From the IMG/VR virus record IMGVR_UViG_3300010429_001264: a DNA stretch of 64,000 bases; one strand, given 5' to 3'. Source of the stretch: a virus (lineage: Duplodnaviria > Caudoviricetes). This document shows, piece after piece, positions 44,431-56,616 of this stretch. Made by a program: the position numbers and the translations under genes. The notes under the pieces were generated by a model. It was not told where the DNA came from and searched no databases. It worked only from the letters and a program-made list of their open reading frames with translations. How positions within the stretch are numbered: the first letter of the stretch is position 1; the number at the start of each line of letters is the position of its first letter.

Positions 44431-45156
44431 ATGTACAAGCAATTTGAGAAATTTAATCTTTGGAAAAAAATTAAGGATAAGGTTGTTTATATCGAGCCCA
44501 ATAGTATTTATGATTTTTCAAAGGATTATATAGACAAAATAGCCGAAAAGGTATCAAAGGAATTGGGGTTTAGATATTCTCATTTTGTGGGAATGGGCGA
44601 TTATGGCATAGCTTATGATGTTGGTAATGAAAAAGTATTAAAAATAACAACAGATAAAAACGAATATGAAATATCAAATTATCTGAGAACAAAAAACACA
44701 ACATATCTTATTGATATATATGATGTTAGAAAAATTGGAGAAACTGGATTGTATTCAATAGTTATGGACAAAGTTGAAAAATTGACATCGTTTGAAAAAA
44801 TATTTTTGGATAAATTAAATGGTTTTTTATACAATAAAAAAATGAATATACTAGATATTTTCTCCACATATGATAATGAAGATAAAATGAGATACTTTTT
44901 GGTGAATGAAATAAGTGATAAACCCGAGCCGTCTTATTCAGCTAATTTTAGTGTTTTATTAAAATTAATATCAGATCTTGTTTATATAAAATTAGAAGCA
45001 AGAAAATATAAAATAATTTGTTGTGACTTGCGAGCAGCCAATGTTGGATGGAAAAATAATGACAGTATAGGAAAACATCTCGTTTTCTTTGATATAGGAA
45101 GTTATGGAGAAAAGAATTTTAAAACTACAAAGAAAAGATTAAAAGATATATCTTAA
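44431..45156 (+). CDS. Protein kinase-like protein
   Basis: GMGDYGIAY, VLKIT, DLRAANVG and FFDIG motifs. Confidence 0.8.
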   Translation: MYKQFEKFNLWKKIKDKVVYIEPNSIYDFSKDYIDKIAEKVSKELGFRYSHFVGMGDYGIAYDVGNEKVLKITTDKNEYEISNYLRTKNTTYLIDIYDVRKIGETGLYSIVMDKVEKLTSFEKIFLDKLNGFLYNKKMNILDIFSTYDNEDKMRYFLVNEISDKPEPSYSANFSVLLKLISDLVYIKLEARKYKIICCDLRAANVGWKNNDSIGKHLVFFDIGSYGEKNFKTTKKRLKDIS

Positions 45157-45173
45157 ATATCAAATTTTATCAT

Positions 45174-45263
45174 TGGCGGAGGGCAATGTTGCCGCCACAT
45201 ATCCTTTTAAGGGGACCGACAATTTAGCAGATTGCGACTATCAACTGGATAGTTTTACCCTCC
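45174..45263 (-). tRNA. tRNA-Ser(GCT)
   Basis: Acceptor GGAGGGT/GCCCTCC-GCCA; loop CTGCTAA; long variable arm. Confidence 0.85.
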
Positions 45264-45385
45264 ATTAATTTTTATTTTAATTTCTGATTTCTTTTTATAA
45301 TTGTAATTTTTTTTACATTTTTTACAACAACCCATTTTATTTATTAATACTATTATGTGAACTTTTTCCATATTTACAATAATCG

Positions 45386-45472
45386 AGGAAGATTACGGTA
45401 CCGACCCGTATACGACTTTCATCGTATCTACTGATTTCCAATCAGAGGAAGCGCCTCACTTCTCAATCTTCC
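45386..45472 (-). tRNA. tRNA-Ser(GGA)
   Basis: Acceptor GGAAGAT/ATCTTCC; loop TTGGAAA; long variable arm. Confidence 0.85.
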
Positions 45473-45592
45473 ACATTAACAAGTGCCCGCCGGCACTTGG
45501 ATGGTTGCTGACATTCTTTTGTTTTACTTAACTAATAGTGCGCGTTACACCTAGTTTTTCATCCTCAAAGCGGGATACCATCATCACTGTAG

Positions 45593-45663
45593 CAGGCCTA
45601 CCCCGGATCGAACAGGGATCTAGAGATTTGGAGTCACTCGTGTTACCATTACACTATAGACCT
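45593..45663 (-). tRNA. tRNA-Trp(CCA)
   Basis: AGGTCTA/TAGGCCT-G; loop CTCCAAA; T loop TTCGATC. Confidence 0.9.
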
Positions 45664-45666
45664 ATT

Positions 45667-45756
45667 TGGCGGCGAATATAGGAGTCTAACCTATACATCG
45701 GATTCTCACCGACTTCACAATTTTCGAAATTGCTAACCACGACAATGGGATTCGCC
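45667..45756 (-). tRNA. tRNA-Ser(CGA)
   Basis: GGCGAAT/ATTCGCC-GCCA; loop TTCGAAA; long variable arm. Confidence 0.85.
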
Positions 45757-45761
45757 AATTT

Positions 45762-45825
45762 CGGAATACTTTTTGGATTCGACAATTTTCAGTTGTAAAT
45801 TTTTTCTTTTTGCTGTTTGTATTCC
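45762..45825 (-). ncRNA. ACAGCAA-motif small RNA, copy 1 (inside tRNA array)
   Basis: GGAATAC-AAACAGCAA...ACAA-CTGAAAA-TTGT...CCAAAAA-GTATTCC. Confidence 0.7.
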
Positions 45826-45830
45826 TCTCG

Positions 45831-45920
45831 CGGTAAAATGAGGTCCCGACCCCCAATCGTTTTCTAGACGATCCTGCTGTTTTCAAGACAGAGCTGACAA
45901 CCCCGGTCAGTTAATTTACC
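45831..45920 (-). tRNA. tRNA-Ser(TGA)
   Basis: GGTAAA/TTTACC-G; loop CTTGAAA; long variable arm. Confidence 0.85.
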
Positions 45921-45949
45921 AATATTTAAAAAGAAAGATTTTTTTCATG

Positions 45950-46022
45950 TGGGCCCGGAGGTATTCGAAACCTCATAGCATTGATTAAGAGTCAATTTCA
46001 TTACCAATTATGATACGAACCC
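45950..46022 (-). tRNA. tRNA-Lys(CTT)
   Basis: GGGTTCG/CGGGCCC-A; loop CTCTTAA; T loop TTCGAAT. Confidence 0.92.
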
Positions 46023-46028
46023 ATTTTG

Positions 46029-46101
46029 TGACTCCGAGGGACCACGATTCCCTAACCCCTTGATTAAAAGTCAAGTGCTCTACCAATTGAGCTACGAAGT
46101 C
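46029..46101 (-). tRNA. tRNA-Lys(TTT)
   Basis: GACTTCG/CGGAGTC-A; canonical D arm; loop CTTTTAA. Confidence 0.9.
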
Positions 46102-46108
46102 ATTTTTG

Positions 46109-46190
46109 CTGGTATAGTAAGATTCGAACTTACAGCCACGCTCACGCATTACCGGGTTGGAACCGGCTGGTCACGCCAATGAGTATACCA
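46109..46190 (-). tRNA. Atypical long-variable-arm tRNA with CCA anticodon
   Basis: TGGTATA/TATACCA-G; GCCGG-TTCCAAC-CCGGT; extra arm ATGC-GTGA-GCGT; T loop TTCGAAT. Confidence 0.75.
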
Positions 46191-46200
46191 ATTTTTTTTG

Positions 46201-46272
46201 TGACCCCACTCAGATTCGAACTGAGACAACTACTTTAAAAGAGTAGGATTCTACCATTGAAATTATGAAGTC
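46201..46272 (-). tRNA. tRNA-Lys(TTT), second copy
   Basis: GACTTCA/TGGGGTC-A; CTACT-CTTTTAA-AGTAG. Confidence 0.9.
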
Positions 46273-46304
46273 ATTTTTTTTTGTGGGTTCTTTCAGTCTC
46301 TTTG

Positions 46305-46377
46305 TGGGTCTCTTTGGTTACGCTCCAAACTCTTCAGTTCTTCAAACTGACGCTTTCACTAGATTAGCTTGAGATCC
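46305..46377 (-). tRNA. tRNA-Phe(GAA)
   Basis: GGATCTC/GAGACCC-A; TCAGT-TTGAAGA-ACTGA. Confidence 0.85.
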
Positions 46378-46382
46378 TTTTG

Positions 46383-46454
46383 GGAGTTTAATCAGAATCG
46401 AACTGATAACTTATCGGCCACAACGATAAATTTTTCCATTAAACTATAAACTCC
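46383..46454 (-). tRNA. tRNA-His(GTG)
   Basis: G-1:C73 pair; TATCG-TTGTGGC-CGATA; T loop TTCGATT. Confidence 0.9.
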
Positions 46455-46467
46455 ATATAAAATTTAC

Positions 46468-46550
46468 GGGGAAGTTTGGAATTGAACCAAAAATATATTG
46501 CATATTCATCAAAAAACAGAATACCATCTCACCTAAGAGATAATCTTCCC
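46468..46550 (-). ncRNA. tRNA-like RNA without a normal anticodon loop
   Basis: GGGAAG/CTTCCC acceptor; ATCTC/GAGAT D-like arm; T arm TTTGG-TTCAATT-CCAAA; 11-nt U-rich loop in the anticodon position. Confidence 0.55.
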
Positions 46551-46890
46551 TATAATATTCAGCCAACCATTAACAAAATAAATCTCATAAATTACCAATT
46601 CATTTTTCTGCCCATTACCCATCCTTTTTTAATGTCTAAATTATTTGTGATATGACAACCTATATATTTTTTATTATTTATCTTATTGGTTATTTCATAA
46701 ATTATATAATATTTCATATTTCTTTTTTTATTCTATATATAAAATAAAAAAGTTCGATTTTGGTTCAATATGGATTACAGAAAAAAAAAACAGAAAGTTA
46801 TTAATTTCAACAGCGAGCATCCTCCTTTACGTCGAGCCTACCAATTTCGCCACTAAAGAAAACATATCATCGTTTAAATATTCATTACAA

Positions 46891-46903
46891 CATGTCAAAG
46901 AAC
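46891..46903 (-). promoter_or_regulatory. boxA-like antitermination element 2
   Basis: GTTCTTTGACATG. Confidence 0.55.
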
Positions 46904-47210
46904 AAAAATATTGAACAAAAATAAGTAACAGCTCTCCTCTTCTTTCATAGATTTTATCATATAGAATCCTCGGTGTTTGTATCGAGTTAGTCTATACCCC
47001 AAACTTATTTGTTTGGATGCCAGTATCATTCAATTTTATTTGACTTCTTTCCGGCCCCCGTCTCTTTACGTACACGGTTACTGCCTTTATCACAGTTTTT
47101 CATCTGTGATCGGTACTTTACGTCGAATTTTTTAGGTCGTCCTATATCGGGATCGAACCAATAATAGGGTTTAAAAAGTTTAACAATTTCCCAACTATTT
47201 TTATTCAACA

Positions 47211-47221
47211 TTTCAAAGAAC
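47211..47221 (-). promoter_or_regulatory. boxA-like antitermination element 1
   Basis: GTTCTTTGAAA immediately downstream of the attenuator terminator. Confidence 0.6.
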
Positions 47222-47225
47222 TTAC

Positions 47226-47262
47226 AAAAAAAAATCCGAACTTTTTTTAGCTCGGATTTTTT
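47226..47262 (-). terminator. Attenuator terminator upstream of tRNA array
   Basis: AAAAAATCCGAGC-TAAAAAAA-GTTCGGATTTTTTTTT. Confidence 0.85.
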
Positions 47263-47293
47263 CTGTGAAGGAGGTATATATTAATATGATCTC

Positions 47294-47377
47294 TTAAAAG
47301 ACACAGACATCCCGAGCCGTTGGTTTTGATGACCAAAAACTGGAAAAATGTTTACTATGTTTCTTAAAAGTTCTCAT
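47294..47377 (-). CDS. Putative attenuator leader peptide MRTFKKHSKHFSSFWSSKPTARDVCVF
   Basis: Manual translation; codons 4-18 are only F/K/H/S/W; the 3' part is complementary to the terminator 5' arm. Confidence 0.8.
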   Translation of the reverse strand: MRTFKKHSKHFSSFWSSKPTARDVCVF

Positions 47378-47438
47378 TGTTTTATTATATATTATGGAAA
47401 AAATATCATTTTTTTCCATTTTTGTTTCATTTATACGA

Positions 47439-47446
47439 CAAAATTA
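47439..47446 (-). promoter_or_regulatory. Bacteroidota-type -7 element (TAATTTTG) upstream of leader/tRNA operon
   Basis: Matches TAnnTTTG; a TAATATATA element also lies at about 47386-47394. Confidence 0.6.
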
Positions 47447-47484
47447 TAAAAAAGTTTGAAAATAAAAAAATAAATTTAATTTTT

Positions 47485-47697
47485 TTATATTTTTTTATCA
47501 TCAATTTTATTCAATTTTGCTGTTTTATACGTGATTTTAGTTCTTGCTGTTCCATAAAATCCCAATTTCTGATTAAATTGACATGTCAATAATCCTTGAA
47601 TTGTTTTCGATGTCGTTCCGCCGAATCCTACCCCAACTCCTTGAGAAAAACAAGTGCTAGATAATGCTAAGAATAAAAGAATGAATATTTTTTTCAT
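47485..47697 (-). CDS. Small secreted protein (possibly truncated)
   Basis: Signal peptide MKKIFILLFLALSSTCFSQ. Confidence 0.55.
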   Translation of the reverse strand: MKKIFILLFLALSSTCFSQGVGVGFGGTTSKTIQGLLTCQFNQKLGFYGTARTKITYKTAKLNKIDDKKI

Positions 47698-47793
47698 TTT
47701 TTTTTGTTTTAAGTGACAAAATTATAAAAAAGTTTTAAAATAAAAAAATATTTTTGTTCTTTTAACTCTATATATTATTCCTTTATTTTCTAG

Positions 47794-48048
47794 TTATATT
47801 TTTTCTATTATAATTCTATACATATGATCTCCTCGTTCATAACCCGTCCGATCTTTTATCTTGTCACCGAGATTTACACAAAAAAGTAATGATTTCTTAT
47901 TTTTCCCAACCATGACCGGTGAACATTTAGATAAATTCTCACTTTTATATATTTCATGCAAACTTTCTGTGAGATCACAATGTTCTTCACTAAATTCAAT
48001 GTTTTCTTTTTTAAATGTTGACTCATCTATATATTCAAATTCTTTCAT
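47794..48048 (-). CDS. Hypothetical protein
   Basis: ORF track. Confidence 0.6.
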   Translation of the reverse strand: MKEFEYIDESTFKKENIEFSEEHCDLTESLHEIYKSENLSKCSPVMVGKNKKSLLFCVNLGDKIKDRTGYERGDHMYRIIIEKI

Positions 48049-51057: not shown

Positions 51058-52515
51058 CTATATTTCAACTGGTTCATATCTTTCAGAATTGATCGTCTTC
51101 AACATAATATCATAAGGAGTCTCCTTAGCTGGAGTTTCTACTTCACTACCAGATAATATCGATTTCAAAATACTTGGACTGAATCCAGAGATCAATCCAA
51201 CATTTTCGTCAAAAGCCGAAGCTGTCACATTGTCATTTTCTGCTCTAAGATTCCAGAATATAACTCTTGGTATCTTATATCCATAGGAAGCGTACTTGGA
51301 TTTTATCATTTCGAATCCAGTTTGAGAATAATTTCCCTTATTTGGATCGAACTGTAAGTCAGATAAAACCAATAAAGTAGTTGGCATTTCATTTTCAGAT
51401 AAATGATTTTCGACGGCCTTTCCTAACATTAAATCGAAAGCTGCTGTAAAGTCAGTAGTATTATTCCAAGGAGCCGATCCTATTTGTCTAATTCTTTCAG
51501 AAACACTGCCTTTCAAATACATCATTTTTGGTATGCTTGAGAAAGTGATGAAGGCGTCTTTAAATATACTTTCATTTTTTTCTGAAATATAAATAGCTAA
51601 TGACTGGGCAACCCTGCCTGGTAATCCACCATACCAACCCATTGATCCTGAAGTATCTACAACTGGCATCAATCTTTCTGTTGTGCCTTCCATATAATTT
51701 GGCAAACTATACCACTGAGCTTCAATTGCTTGAATATCAGCTTCATTTTTTGCTCTAACGAAAGCATCATATAATTGATATGGATAAATAGCAGAGGCAC
51801 ACATTTTAGAAACGCCACTTTTAACATTAAGTATGTAGTCGTTAAACCTGTTTTTATCGTTACGATAGAAAGCCTTGCGATATTTGTTCATAGCAACAGA
51901 AGGAACTTGATCGTATTTTATACCATCATATTCTTTTTTGCACATCAACTGCTCGACTGTATTTGAAAGCCCCACTATTAATTTGCGATAATCTTTTGGT
52001 GTTAATTTTAAAGATTTTCTAATCTTATTTGCTCTCCATCCCTTTCTATCTAGCCATTTGGCCAATAGGAATTTAGTTGAGTCTTCACCATACAACATTT
52101 TTTTTATGATATTTAAAATCTCAATATCAATTTCTGTGTTTGATCCATCATTCAATAGCTCGACCATATCATCCCAACGACCATACTCTGGTATAAGATG
52201 AATATTTTTCATTAAATATCCATTGTAATATTTTTCTAGATATTTTAAACAAACTCTAAAAAATCTTCTTTCACCTGCTCCTCCTCTAACATCTCTAACC
52301 CAAAACATGAGTTTTAAAGCCATTAAAGGATCTTCTGATAGTGCTTTTTGAAATAATTGCTCAATTTTTCCATCATCCCAATGACGGGCTGAGCCAGCCA
52401 TGAAAAACATATCCACACAAGAGTTTAAGCTTGTTGAATTTGTAACCATACCCTTTTCGGTGTATGAATCCTTTTGACGTGCCGCGTTGACAAGTCTTGA
52501 CATTGAAATAGCCAT
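51058..52515 (-). CDS. DUF2828-type Ro60/TROVE-like protein with C-terminal vWA domain
   Basis: RDVRGGAGER, EYGRWDD, AKW, VPSVAM, MIDAS VDTSGSM, LSDLQFD, FWNL and SGFSP motifs. Confidence 0.85.
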   Translation of the reverse strand: MAISMSRLVNAARQKDSYTEKGMVTNSTSLNSCVDMFFMAGSARHWDDGKIEQLFQKALSEDPLMALKLMFWVRDVRGGAGERRFFRVCLKYLEKYYNGYLMKNIHLIPEYGRWDDMVELLNDGSNTEIDIEILNIIKKMLYGEDSTKFLLAKWLDRKGWRANKIRKSLKLTPKDYRKLIVGLSNTVEQLMCKKEYDGIKYDQVPSVAMNKYRKAFYRNDKNRFNDYILNVKSGVSKMCASAIYPYQLYDAFVRAKNEADIQAIEAQWYSLPNYMEGTTERLMPVVDTSGSMGWYGGLPGRVAQSLAIYISEKNESIFKDAFITFSSIPKMMYLKGSVSERIRQIGSAPWNNTTDFTAAFDLMLGKAVENHLSENEMPTTLLVLSDLQFDPNKGNYSQTGFEMIKSKYASYGYKIPRVIFWNLRAENDNVTASAFDENVGLISGFSPSILKSILSGSEVETPAKETPYDIMLKTINSERYEPVEI

Positions 52516-52560
52516 TTTCTTTAAAATTAATTTTAGTTAACTTGAATGATAAAAAAATCT

Positions 52561-52617
52561 CGGATTACTTTTTTTGGCACCTTTGCTTGGTTTTTTTTTA
52601 GTTGCTGTATGTAATCC
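52561..52617 (-). ncRNA. ACAGCAA-motif small RNA, copy 2
   Basis: GGATTAC-ATACAGCAA...ACC-AAGCAAA-GGT..CCAAAAAAA-GTAATCC. Confidence 0.7.
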
Positions 52618-52629
52618 ATCAAACTTACA

Positions 52630-52689
52630 CAGGATATTATTTTGGTTTTTTAATTTTCGGTTAAAAAAAAATGTTGCTGTAAATATCCT
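52630..52689 (-). ncRNA. ACAGCAA-motif small RNA, copy 3
   Basis: AGGATATT-TACAGCAA...TTTTAA-CCGAAAA-TTAAAA..CCAAAA-T-AATATCCT. Confidence 0.7.
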
Positions 52690-52747
52690 TCAAGTTAATA
52701 TCTTTACTTTATATATATTTTAATTAAAAAAGTCGTTTTTTTCCAAT

Positions 52748-52930
52748 TTATTTCTCATTTAACCATCTTTCGCATACTGCCAGGTCATTTGTATCCCAAC
52801 CACCCAATTGATCAAGCAATTTGGCGCAATCAGTTTCTCCACTTGCGATAAAATCATTAACGATTTGCAAATGTCTTTTAGTGTAATACATAACACCAAG
52901 TTTTTGTAATAATCCTTCTGCTGTTTTCAC
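52748..52930 (-). CDS. Hypothetical protein
   Basis: ORF track. Confidence 0.55.
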   Translation of the reverse strand: MKTAEGLLQKLGVMYYTKRHLQIVNDFIASGETDCAKLLDQLGGWDTNDLAVCERWLNEK

Positions 52931-53991: not shown

Positions 53992-56616
53992 TTAAATCAA
54001 CCTATCTATTCTAAATAAAAGATCGCTCTGACTTATTGGTTTTGTTACATAATCATCACATCCCATATCATAAGCCTTGTTTTTTTGATCAGGCATAGCC
54101 AGTGCCGATTCAACTATTATTGGCAATCTTTCGTCAAATTCTTTTATTTCCTTTATTAATTTATATCCGCTTTTTCCAGGTAGTCCTATATCCAATAGAA
54201 CTAAATCAATTTTATTATTTTTTATAATGTCCATAACCTCATTACCGTTCCAACATTCTATTATATTTACATTGGTTTTAAATAAATGTTTAGCTATAAT
54301 ATAACGACTATCTTTATCATCTTCAACAACAAGTATTGTTTTACCTTTCAAATTCATTGATTTTTTATGAACCTTCTCTTTAACACTTTCAACATAATCA
54401 AATGTTTTAATTTCATATGGAGCATAAAAATAAAATTTGCTACCTTCTCCCAATTTTGATTCTAATTTTATATCATCAAATCCCAATAATTTTATTAAAG
54501 ACTTTGTTATAGAAAGTCCCAGACCTGCTCCTTTAAATTTATTTCCAGAACTATTTAACTGCCTAAATCTTTCAAAAATTATTTTCTGATTTTCTTCGGC
54601 TATACCAATTCCAGTGTCTTCGACAAATATCATAATCTTTTGTCTATCAATTATTTTATAACCAAATTTAACATACCCCTCTTTCGTGAATTTAATAGCG
54701 TTTCCGATTAGATTCATTAATATTTGACGTAAACGATATTTATCTGTATTAATAATAACATTTTTATTTATATCTTCTTCGATTATTATTTCTATCTTTT
54801 TGTCTTTTATTTGTTTGGAATAACTCAATCTCAACTCCTCTAATAATTTGTTGATTTCAAACTCTCTTTTTTCTATTTTCAAACTATTTGTATCGATTTT
54901 AGAAACATCTATAATATCATCGATCAAAGCCATTAAAAATTTTCCATTGTTTATGATAGTATTCACATAATCAGTTTTTTCTGATTTTGTTAGATTATTG
55001 TTTTTCAATAAATCAGAAAAACCTATTATAGCATTCATCGGAGTGCGGAGATCGTGACTCATATTGGCTAGGAATTCGAGTTTCATTTTATCTGATTCTT
55101 CAGCTTTTTCTTTAGCTTTTATGAGCTCTTCTTCAAAAACTTTTCTATCTGTTATATCTACACCAAAAGAAACTATTTTTTCAACTTCTTTGTTTTTCAC
55201 CACCAAATTGTTTCTCCAAACTAAAAATCTTCTTTGACCACTTTTTGTTACTATTTCATTTTCATGCTTTCTATCTTCATCTGTAAAATTGAGCTTCATT
55301 TTTGTCATAAATTGAAACATTTTAACTTTATCTTCTTGTGGTATAAGAAGACTGAACCAGTTTTCGCCAATAACCTCATCTCTTTTATATCCTGTAATTT
55401 TCTCGGCAGCTTCGTTAAAAAATAATATATTGCCATCTGGATCCAATTCGACAACAATAACATTAGCCATTTGTATAATGTTCTCCGCGTTTTCTTTAGA
55501 GTTTCTGAGTTCATTCTGCACATTGATTTCATCAGTAATATCTCTTATCATAATAATTACCTCATCTTCACCACTTTTAGTTGTTCTGGAATAAAAAAAT
55601 CTTTTTTCACCATTTTCCATTTTAATTGGATATTGATGCTCGTCTGTTATACCATTTCTTATAACACGCTCGATGGTTTCAATGGATTCTATTTTTACAT
55701 AATCATCTATTGGCAAAGAATACATATCCTTTCCTATATAATCTTTTAAATTTTCATTACTCAAATAATCATCCATACCTGGTTTGATATCCAGAATTAA
55801 AGCGTCTTCTCTAACGCGCATAACCATATACGGTATCGCATTCAATATAGCAATATAATTTTCAGTATTTTCCTTATTTTCAGTGATATCAACGATGAAT
55901 AGAATTAAATATTCACCTCCATCTAGTTTTATATAATCGCCCGAGAATTCACCATACCGAATTTCATTATATTTTGTTTTATATTTTAATGGTAAATTTT
56001 TAATAGTCCCATACACTTTTAATTCTTCCGCCAAAATCTTTCTATCTTCTATTGTCAACAACCCTAGATCTATAGATCTCCTACCTATTAATTCTTCTCG
56101 TTCATATCCAGACATTTGAACAAATCTTTCATTAACATCCAATAAAACTCCTGTATTTATTTCAGATATGGATATAGCATAAGCATTTGAATTGAAAATC
56201 TTTTTTATCTTCTCTTCATAATTAGTTATTATAGCATAATCCTTACAAAAGGCATACGCTATTTTTTTATTTTCTTTTATATATTTTCCAACATAAACCC
56301 TTGAAACAACTTTGATTTCTTTTCCGTCTTTCGACACCAGTGGTATCTCACAACTTTTCGTTTCGCCTTTAAATAATGAAACCAGTTTTTGTTTTAAAAT
56401 ATCATCAAATTTAGAATCCCGAATTTCAAATAAAGTCATATTTTTCATTTCTTCATTGGTATATCCGATTGTTTCTCTAGCCATGGAATTTGTTTTTAAT
56501 ATTTTTCCGTCTTCATCAAATATAAATATCATATCGTCGAGCGATTCAACGAAATCCTCCATCCTATAGCACTCAAAACTATCATTATAAGCACAACTAA
56601 AAGAATTTTTATCCAT
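53992..56616 (-). CDS. Multi-PAS hybrid sensor histidine kinase/response regulator
   Basis: About four PAS repeats; FLANMSHDLRTPMN, NAIKFT, DTGIGI and GAGLGL; receiver VEDD...DIGLP...KP. Confidence 0.95.
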   Translation of the reverse strand: MDKNSFSCAYNDSFECYRMEDFVESLDDMIFIFDEDGKILKTNSMARETIGYTNEEMKNMTLFEIRDSKFDDILKQKLVSLFKGETKSCEIPLVSKDGKEIKVVSRVYVGKYIKENKKIAYAFCKDYAIITNYEEKIKKIFNSNAYAISISEINTGVLLDVNERFVQMSGYEREELIGRRSIDLGLLTIEDRKILAEELKVYGTIKNLPLKYKTKYNEIRYGEFSGDYIKLDGGEYLILFIVDITENKENTENYIAILNAIPYMVMRVREDALILDIKPGMDDYLSNENLKDYIGKDMYSLPIDDYVKIESIETIERVIRNGITDEHQYPIKMENGEKRFFYSRTTKSGEDEVIIMIRDITDEINVQNELRNSKENAENIIQMANVIVVELDPDGNILFFNEAAEKITGYKRDEVIGENWFSLLIPQEDKVKMFQFMTKMKLNFTDEDRKHENEIVTKSGQRRFLVWRNNLVVKNKEVEKIVSFGVDITDRKVFEEELIKAKEKAEESDKMKLEFLANMSHDLRTPMNAIIGFSDLLKNNNLTKSEKTDYVNTIINNGKFLMALIDDIIDVSKIDTNSLKIEKREFEINKLLEELRLSYSKQIKDKKIEIIIEEDINKNVIINTDKYRLRQILMNLIGNAIKFTKEGYVKFGYKIIDRQKIMIFVEDTGIGIAEENQKIIFERFRQLNSSGNKFKGAGLGLSITKSLIKLLGFDDIKLESKLGEGSKFYFYAPYEIKTFDYVESVKEKVHKKSMNLKGKTILVVEDDKDSRYIIAKHLFKTNVNIIECWNGNEVMDIIKNNKIDLVLLDIGLPGKSGYKLIKEIKEFDERLPIIVESALAMPDQKNKAYDMGCDDYVTKPISQSDLLFRIDRLI

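Follow-up and report, generated by a model that had tools for sequence, protein, structure and literature searches.

For about fifty years, leader-peptide attenuation has been textbook knowledge. The enterobacterial examples include the trpL, hisL, pheL and leuL leaders as well as multivalent ones, such as the ilvGMEDA leader (Ile/Leu/Val) and the thr leader (Thr/Ile), and in the pheST attenuator of E. coli the pheM leader places phenylalanyl-tRNA synthetase under leader-peptide control through the sensing of one amino acid. To our knowledge, the leader-peptide attenuators described so far serve only genes for amino-acid biosynthesis, amino-acid transport and aminoacyl-tRNA synthetases. The pheL attenuator has been reviewed (PMC3082878). 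Here we analyzed a window of 64,000 nucleotides (nt), the whole stretch of DNA under study, which was taken from a viral contig of 76,982 bases (Caudoviricetes; IMG/VR record IMGVR_UViG_3300010429_001264). In this window, a short leader open reading frame (ORF) and a terminator hairpin precede an array of phage tRNA genes, all on the minus strand like the other features of the window reported below. With a probability of about 0.8, this cassette is a ribosome-mediated (leader-peptide) transcription attenuator that controls the phage tRNA operon. No published leader-peptide control of tRNA genes or of phage tRNA arrays was found in the literature, in a search whose full-text coverage was incomplete.

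The leader ORF (47294-47377) consists of 27 codons followed by TAA, and its position, codons and coordinates were exactly as given in a preliminary description of this DNA. Codons 4-18 (47368-47324) form a sensor run of 15 consecutive Phe, Lys, His, Ser or Trp codons (F/K/H/S/W), as that description had also stated. Analysis of all six frames of the contig showed that this was the longest run of the five amino acids, the next longest being 10 and 9 codons, while the run lengths observed (30,934 runs, in-set fraction 0.284) led to an expectation of about 7e-4 runs of at least 15 codons. All 15 codons of the run can be read by anticodons of the downstream array, and Ser-CGA was indeed the only array anticodon without its codon in the run. 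An in-frame ATG at 47419, which had been overlooked, offers an alternative start and would give an ORF of 41 codons.

The leader RNA was found to contain three mutually exclusive helices, each of which was matched in stability by 0 of 200 shuffled sequences. The intrinsic terminator hairpin with its U-tract (3:4 helix, 47224-47266) had a folding energy of -19.1 kcal/mol (z = -7.57). Its 5' arm, segment 3 (47249-47267), is at the same time the 3' strand of an antiterminator, whose other strand is segment 2, the distal leader through the stop codon (47291-47318). The energy of this 2:3 helix was -19.3 kcal/mol (z = -3.15), which showed that the pairing proposed earlier between the leader and the terminator arm (GCTCGG with CCGAGC and CTGTG with CACAG) is real. 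A further helix, which had escaped notice, is formed between the sensor run, acting as segment 1 (47324-47368), and segment 2; the energy of this 1:2 helix was -23.8 kcal/mol (z = -4.35). The z score of the whole leader fold was -6.2.

When the full-length RNA was folded at equilibrium, the terminator was always kept, also under ribosome masks; the switch must therefore be kinetic, as in classical attenuators. Because equilibrium folds cannot separate the states, folding was redone in a co-transcriptional model on RNA ending before the 3' arm of the terminator, and the ribosome footprint was masked codon by codon. In this truncated RNA, the 1:2 helix formed in the absence of a ribosome and segment 3 was left unpaired. 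With the ribosomal A site at any of codons 1-16 the 2:3 antiterminator formed in silico, and with the A site at codons 17-27 it was unable to form. The switch point of the model, codon 16/17, falls at the end of the sensor run. Thus, the comparison of folds with and without a ribosome, proposed in the preliminary description, gave the predicted switch in the truncated RNA but not in the full-length RNA.

Under the attenuation model, transcription would start at the cassette head (47446-47385) and a ribosome would translate the 27-codon leader. Slow decoding of any Phe, Lys, His, Ser or Trp codon of the run would hold the ribosome on segment 1, 47318-47302 would then pair with 47267-47249, the terminator would be blocked, and the polymerase would enter the tRNA genes. 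Fast decoding would carry the ribosome onto segment 2 and the stop codon, segment 3 would pair with segment 4, and transcription would end at about 47226. If the leader were not translated, the 1:2 helix would form and termination would be expected as well. The cassette would in this way work as a negative-feedback OR gate, by which the tRNA set is made when decoding capacity is low and shut off once the tRNAs accumulate. We infer that the ORF is translated, that transcription and translation are coupled, and that the operon responds in this manner; host tRNA cleavage, host shut-off, starvation and a mismatch in codon usage are all conceivable physiological triggers.

Related loci were then considered. 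A search of the INPHARED phage genomes for relatives of the contig returned none, the matches being tRNA-Lys fragments only, and no relative was found by way of the adjacent CYTH protein. Relatives were recovered from IMG/VR through the neighbouring Ro60-like gene. IMG/VR relatives of 33-71 kb were rated 5-10% complete and two further relatives were 640 and 676 kb, so the window is regarded as a fragment of a giant-phage genome. A pattern derived from the terminator of the relatives recovered only two contigs that were already known. In two loci reached through the Ro60-like gene, L063 and L064, the array specifies Thr, Pro, Arg, Cys, Gly, Val, Gln, Ala and Glu, and the leader ORFs are built of the same residues. 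In L063 the short ORF, the antiterminator and the terminator are followed directly by the array, and in L064 the terminator is separated from the first tRNA by an extra short ORF.

The window, L063 and L064 have a cassette-head motif in common, which consists of a GGAAAAA/TTTTTCC inverted repeat followed by AATATATAA and was located in the window by exact match at 47385-47421. The hairpin of this motif was present in the minimum free energy fold. A scan of IMG/VR with the motif gave about 18 sites with a tRNA array on the same strand within 200-500 nt, and nearly all of them had an ORF of 22-44 codons between the motif and the array. A promoter-like element of the Bacteroidota -7 type (TAnnTTTG), read from the sequence at 47439-47446 in the window, sits 13-41 nt 5' of the motif in 14 of the 20 cassettes compared below. 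The motif itself may be either a phage-specific promoter or else a 5' hairpin or operator. A copy with one mismatch at 700-784 stands directly 5' of an ORF with a TnpB/IS605 OrfB-like N-terminus, so the motif is not confined to tRNA operons.

The comparison set comprised 20 cassettes, namely that of the window and 19 from related giant-phage contigs. Leader ORFs were taken by rule and not by eye, and each leader region was scored against each array. A short ORF and a terminator-like hairpin were picked ahead of the tRNA array in 20 of 20 cassettes. The resulting matrix of leaders against arrays was block-diagonal, with three main classes, F/K/H/S/W(/I/V), D/E/N/Y/M/L(/C/I) and T/G/A/Q/P/R/V(/C), and smaller ones such as E/M/Q. 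The amino acids of the leader change with those of the array, and the correspondence between leader codons and array, whose absence from homologous loci had been named beforehand as evidence that would refute attenuation, was therefore present. We regard this comparison as the decisive evidence for attenuation. In the 676-kb relative, which was 98% complete, each of the three arrays is headed by such a leader, the in-set runs being 13, 21 and 14 codons long, and together the arrays cover all 20 amino acids. The same correspondence was seen within the F/K/H/S/W class. Two arrays that carry tRNA-Ile have Ile codons inside the leader run, and one of the two also carries tRNA-Val and has Val codons in the run, while the other five arrays have neither of these tRNAs and their runs have neither of these codons. 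At the level of single codons, 173 of 205 could be decoded by anticodons of the array, compared with 160.9 +/- 4.1 expected.

The alternative helices were also followed across the set. The terminator-like hairpins with a U-run had energies of -8 to -21.5 kcal/mol, although the pick with the least favourable energy, that of L071, is doubtful and probably mistaken. In 11 cassettes, 17-36 nt separate the start of the U-run from the first tRNA, and in the remainder the U-run starts farther upstream. In 17 of the 20 cassettes, 7-14 nt of the leader ORF are exactly complementary, by Watson-Crick pairing, to the 5' arm of the terminator, and in 13 of these 17 the complementary stretch starts 2-3 codons past the in-set run. 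The sequences of the terminator arms differ widely among loci, and 12% of mismatched leader/arm pairs, many of them homologues, reached 7 nt. The antiterminator strand thus co-varies with the terminator arm across cassettes, which supports the attenuation reading put forward in the preliminary description. Between the window and its closest homologue, L094, one pair of the 2:3 helix is changed from C-G to T-A, and the same position of the 3:4 helix is changed from G-T to A-T. When the seven F/K/H/S/W leaders were aligned with MAFFT, the stems fell one column out of register, and complementarity was therefore measured locus by locus. The transition in the masking model fell at or near the end of the run in most relatives.

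Several points weigh against control by leader-peptide attenuation. Besides the preference of the full-length RNA for the terminator at equilibrium, the untranslated RNA already favours the antiterminator in most relatives, so the four-segment logic of the window is not universal in the family. The leader ATG is only 7 nt 3' of the conserved motif, and if the motif were the promoter the mRNA would be nearly leaderless. The long, poorly conserved spacer between the terminator and the array could hide an internal promoter that bypasses the attenuator, and of the eleven tRNAs, the five that depart from the canonical form may lack function. Translation of the ORF, termination at 47226 and regulated read-through are predictions from sequence and folding, and the mechanism would hinge on the identity of the transcribing polymerase and on the coupling of the ribosome to it.

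The same attenuator might respond to the supply of amino acids, with uncharged tRNA in starvation, rather than a shortage of tRNA, stalling the ribosome. A stalled ribosome cannot tell a missing tRNA from an uncharged one, and the structural evidence, that is, the masking model and the complementarity of the arms, fits both readings equally; moreover, all classical leader-peptide attenuators that we know of report charging. However, starvation for an amino acid cannot be relieved by more tRNA, so sensing of amino-acid supply would leave the matching of each leader to its own array without selective logic. The leaders also sense 5-8 unrelated amino acids, grouped like the arrays and not by biosynthetic pathway. 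We therefore consider amino-acid supply an improbable signal.

It is less probable still that the helices work without translation, as a processing or stability element or as the site of a phage antitermination protein, and that the ORF is incidental. The inverted repeat in the head motif could bind a protein, and the leaders of most relatives have no clear Shine-Dalgarno sequence, both of which would suit such a role. However, an incidental ORF would not stay open in 20 of 20 cassettes, its content would not follow the class of the array, and the antiterminator strand would not as a rule begin 2-3 codons after the end of an in-set run. A further alternative, an unrelated small-protein gene with its own terminator beside an independently transcribed array, the codon match being due to chance, seems to us hardly credible. 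Although the 675-nt spacer has room for a separate promoter and A/T-rich sequence favours Lys and Phe codons, the run is unmatched elsewhere in the contig and the match between leader and array recurs with different amino-acid sets in independent cassettes. Moreover, the leader peptides are poorly conserved in sequence, while their composition and the RNA pairing are retained. The matrix of leaders against arrays and the complementarity of the arms contradict this alternative.

The tRNA genes controlled under the attenuation reading were examined with ARAGORN at default and relaxed settings, the Rfam tRNA threshold and reading by hand. With introns allowed and the threshold lowered, ARAGORN produced some 130 spurious calls, which were disregarded outside the array. 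The count of eleven tRNAs in the preliminary description was reasonable, with six above the Rfam threshold, three found by relaxed ARAGORN and two read by hand, but five of them depart from the canonical form. The six genes above the Rfam threshold were tRNA-His (GTG, 46382-46453), tRNA-Phe (GAA, 46305-46377; 38.1 bits), two tRNA-Lys (TTT, 46200-46272 and 46028-46101), tRNA-Lys (CTT, 45949-46022) and a canonical tRNA-Trp (CCA, 45592-45663); tRNA-Phe was called by relaxed ARAGORN as well. A twelfth, tRNA-like element at the head of the array (46467-46550) has an aberrant anticodon arm and no clear anticodon; it was called by relaxed ARAGORN and scored 21.3 bits, below threshold, with the Rfam tRNA-Sec model.

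The three genes called by relaxed ARAGORN only have long variable arms and the anticodons GGA, TGA and CCA, and all have an acceptor stem of 8 bp and a T stem of 4 bp, a geometry known from tRNA-Sec and allo-tRNAs. The Ser-type genes with GGA (45385-45472) and TGA (45830-45920) were missed by default ARAGORN and by the Rfam tRNA model, and they align closely with Ser tRNAs of the relatives that default ARAGORN accepts; the GGA gene is homologous to the Ser-GGA gene of L093 and folds alone into a cloverleaf (z = -3.77). The third gene (46108-46190) carries the Trp anticodon CCA on a long-variable-arm body like that of Ser or Sec tRNAs, beside the normal tRNA-Trp. Long-arm CCA tRNAs of more than 78 nt were found in at least five relatives (L079, L093, L103, L105 and L178), often as the first gene after the terminator. 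The two genes read by hand are Ser-type and tRNA-like, and both encode the CCA end: the one with anticodon CGA (45667-45756) was missed at default settings, and the one with GCT (45174-45263), the last of the array, was aligned with the other Ser-type genes. A small ORF rich in Cys, Lys, Asn, Tyr and Ile (45255-45371) reads into the 5' end of this Ser-GCT gene. A degenerate copy of the head motif lies 5' of this ORF, which has no terminator and may be a decayed second cassette or a product of chance. In the 676-kb relative (L179, minus strand 1674-1747), a tRNA with the anticodon TTA would read the UAA stop codon, a hint that stop codons may be suppressed or recoded in this group of phages.

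The distance from the terminator to the first tRNA-like gene, about 675 nt, had not been remarked on in the preliminary description. This spacer (46551-47223) showed no overall excess of structure (47225-46555, z = -0.24) and has no homologue in the relatives, except for a block of about 45 nt (46881-46924) that is found just 5' of the first tRNA in L071. It contains two GTTCTTTGA(A/C)AT elements (47210-47221 and 46892-46903), and the element was not enriched in the window at one mismatch. Soon after the terminator (about 47139-47170) lies a stand-alone hairpin with a canonical T-loop (GGTTCGATCC), which may represent a tRNA top-half minihelix or what is left of a first tRNA that was lost. A 41-codon ORF (46592-46717) resembles the N-terminal GIY-YIG motif of homing endonucleases. 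It probably represents an insertion that has decayed in the interval between attenuator and array; intact HNH genes occupy the equivalent position in relatives.

The contig has a G+C content of about 28%, and its genes are phage-like, including those for a collagen-like tail fibre, an endolysin-type glucosaminidase, homing endonucleases and the Ro60-like RNA-binding protein. The Ro60-like gene (51058-52748; PHROG 850 RNA-binding protein, DUF2828/DUF7788) has small RNA-like elements upstream, together with a copy of the cassette-head motif with two mismatches (52726-52748). A phage-borne hybrid histidine kinase of 874 amino acids, with PAS domains and HisKA, HATPase and receiver domains, is encoded at 53992-56616.

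If the attenuator works as proposed, the device would appear to measure decoding speed and to feed back on tRNA synthesis. This would explain how the dozens of tRNA genes in giant phages are dosed and why they are sorted into fixed amino-acid groups, it would provide a natural and programmable sensor of codon-specific decoding capacity, and it would open to direct test the view that phage tRNAs are a response to the depletion of host tRNAs. A more far-reaching proposal, which we regard as speculative and rather unlikely, is that the cassette is a sentinel for tRNA-targeting immunity. Any anticodon nuclease or other tRNA-depleting defence of the host by which a codon of the run came to be decoded slowly would then open the attenuator, and replacement tRNAs, some of them unusual in their bodies, would be released in a burst. 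Together with its sister cassettes in other parts of the genome, the device would be a homeostat, subset by subset, for the tRNAs of all 20 amino acids.

Phage tRNAs can counter tRNA-targeting defences, according to the parts of three studies considered here (PMC10264068, PMC11464382 and PMC11555353). The likeness of the array to those countermeasures lies in phage-encoded tRNAs, tRNA-Lys among them, that take the place of cleaved or scarce host tRNAs; the same parts of these studies concern tRNAs and nuclease resistance, not a sensor that controls tRNA synthesis. The proposed cassette also resembles T-box riboswitches, in which the choice between terminator and antiterminator depends on the status of tRNA. 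However, T-boxes control synthetase or amino-acid genes and recognize uncharged tRNA by direct binding, with no need for translation, whereas here the ORF is the conserved sensing part; the T-box covariance model had no match at E <= 1 within 44500-48000. As in pheST, attenuation would govern a component of the decoding apparatus and not a biosynthetic pathway, but here the products are the tRNAs themselves, and the loop would close directly on decoding capacity.

A close likeness is to the attenuators of enterobacterial amino-acid operons. Here as there, regulatory codons are clustered in a short leader ORF and the 5' arm of the terminator can pair alternatively with the distal leader, so that stalling in the run favours the antiterminator; in the window, the 1:2 helix would likewise enforce termination in the absence of leader translation. 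The two are unrelated in sequence: the Rfam Thr_leader model (RF00506) gave the leader 25.2 bits against a threshold of 55, a match that rests on the terminator hairpin, as does a sub-threshold match to STnc240. Unlike the enterobacterial elements, the element described here is phage-borne, the genes regulated are tRNA genes and not those of biosynthetic enzymes, and five to eight unrelated amino acids are mixed in the run, in a choice that mirrors the downstream tRNA set. The new point is the place of tRNA genes as the regulated genes of an attenuator, which is a departure from the known members of the class and not a failure of its mechanism.

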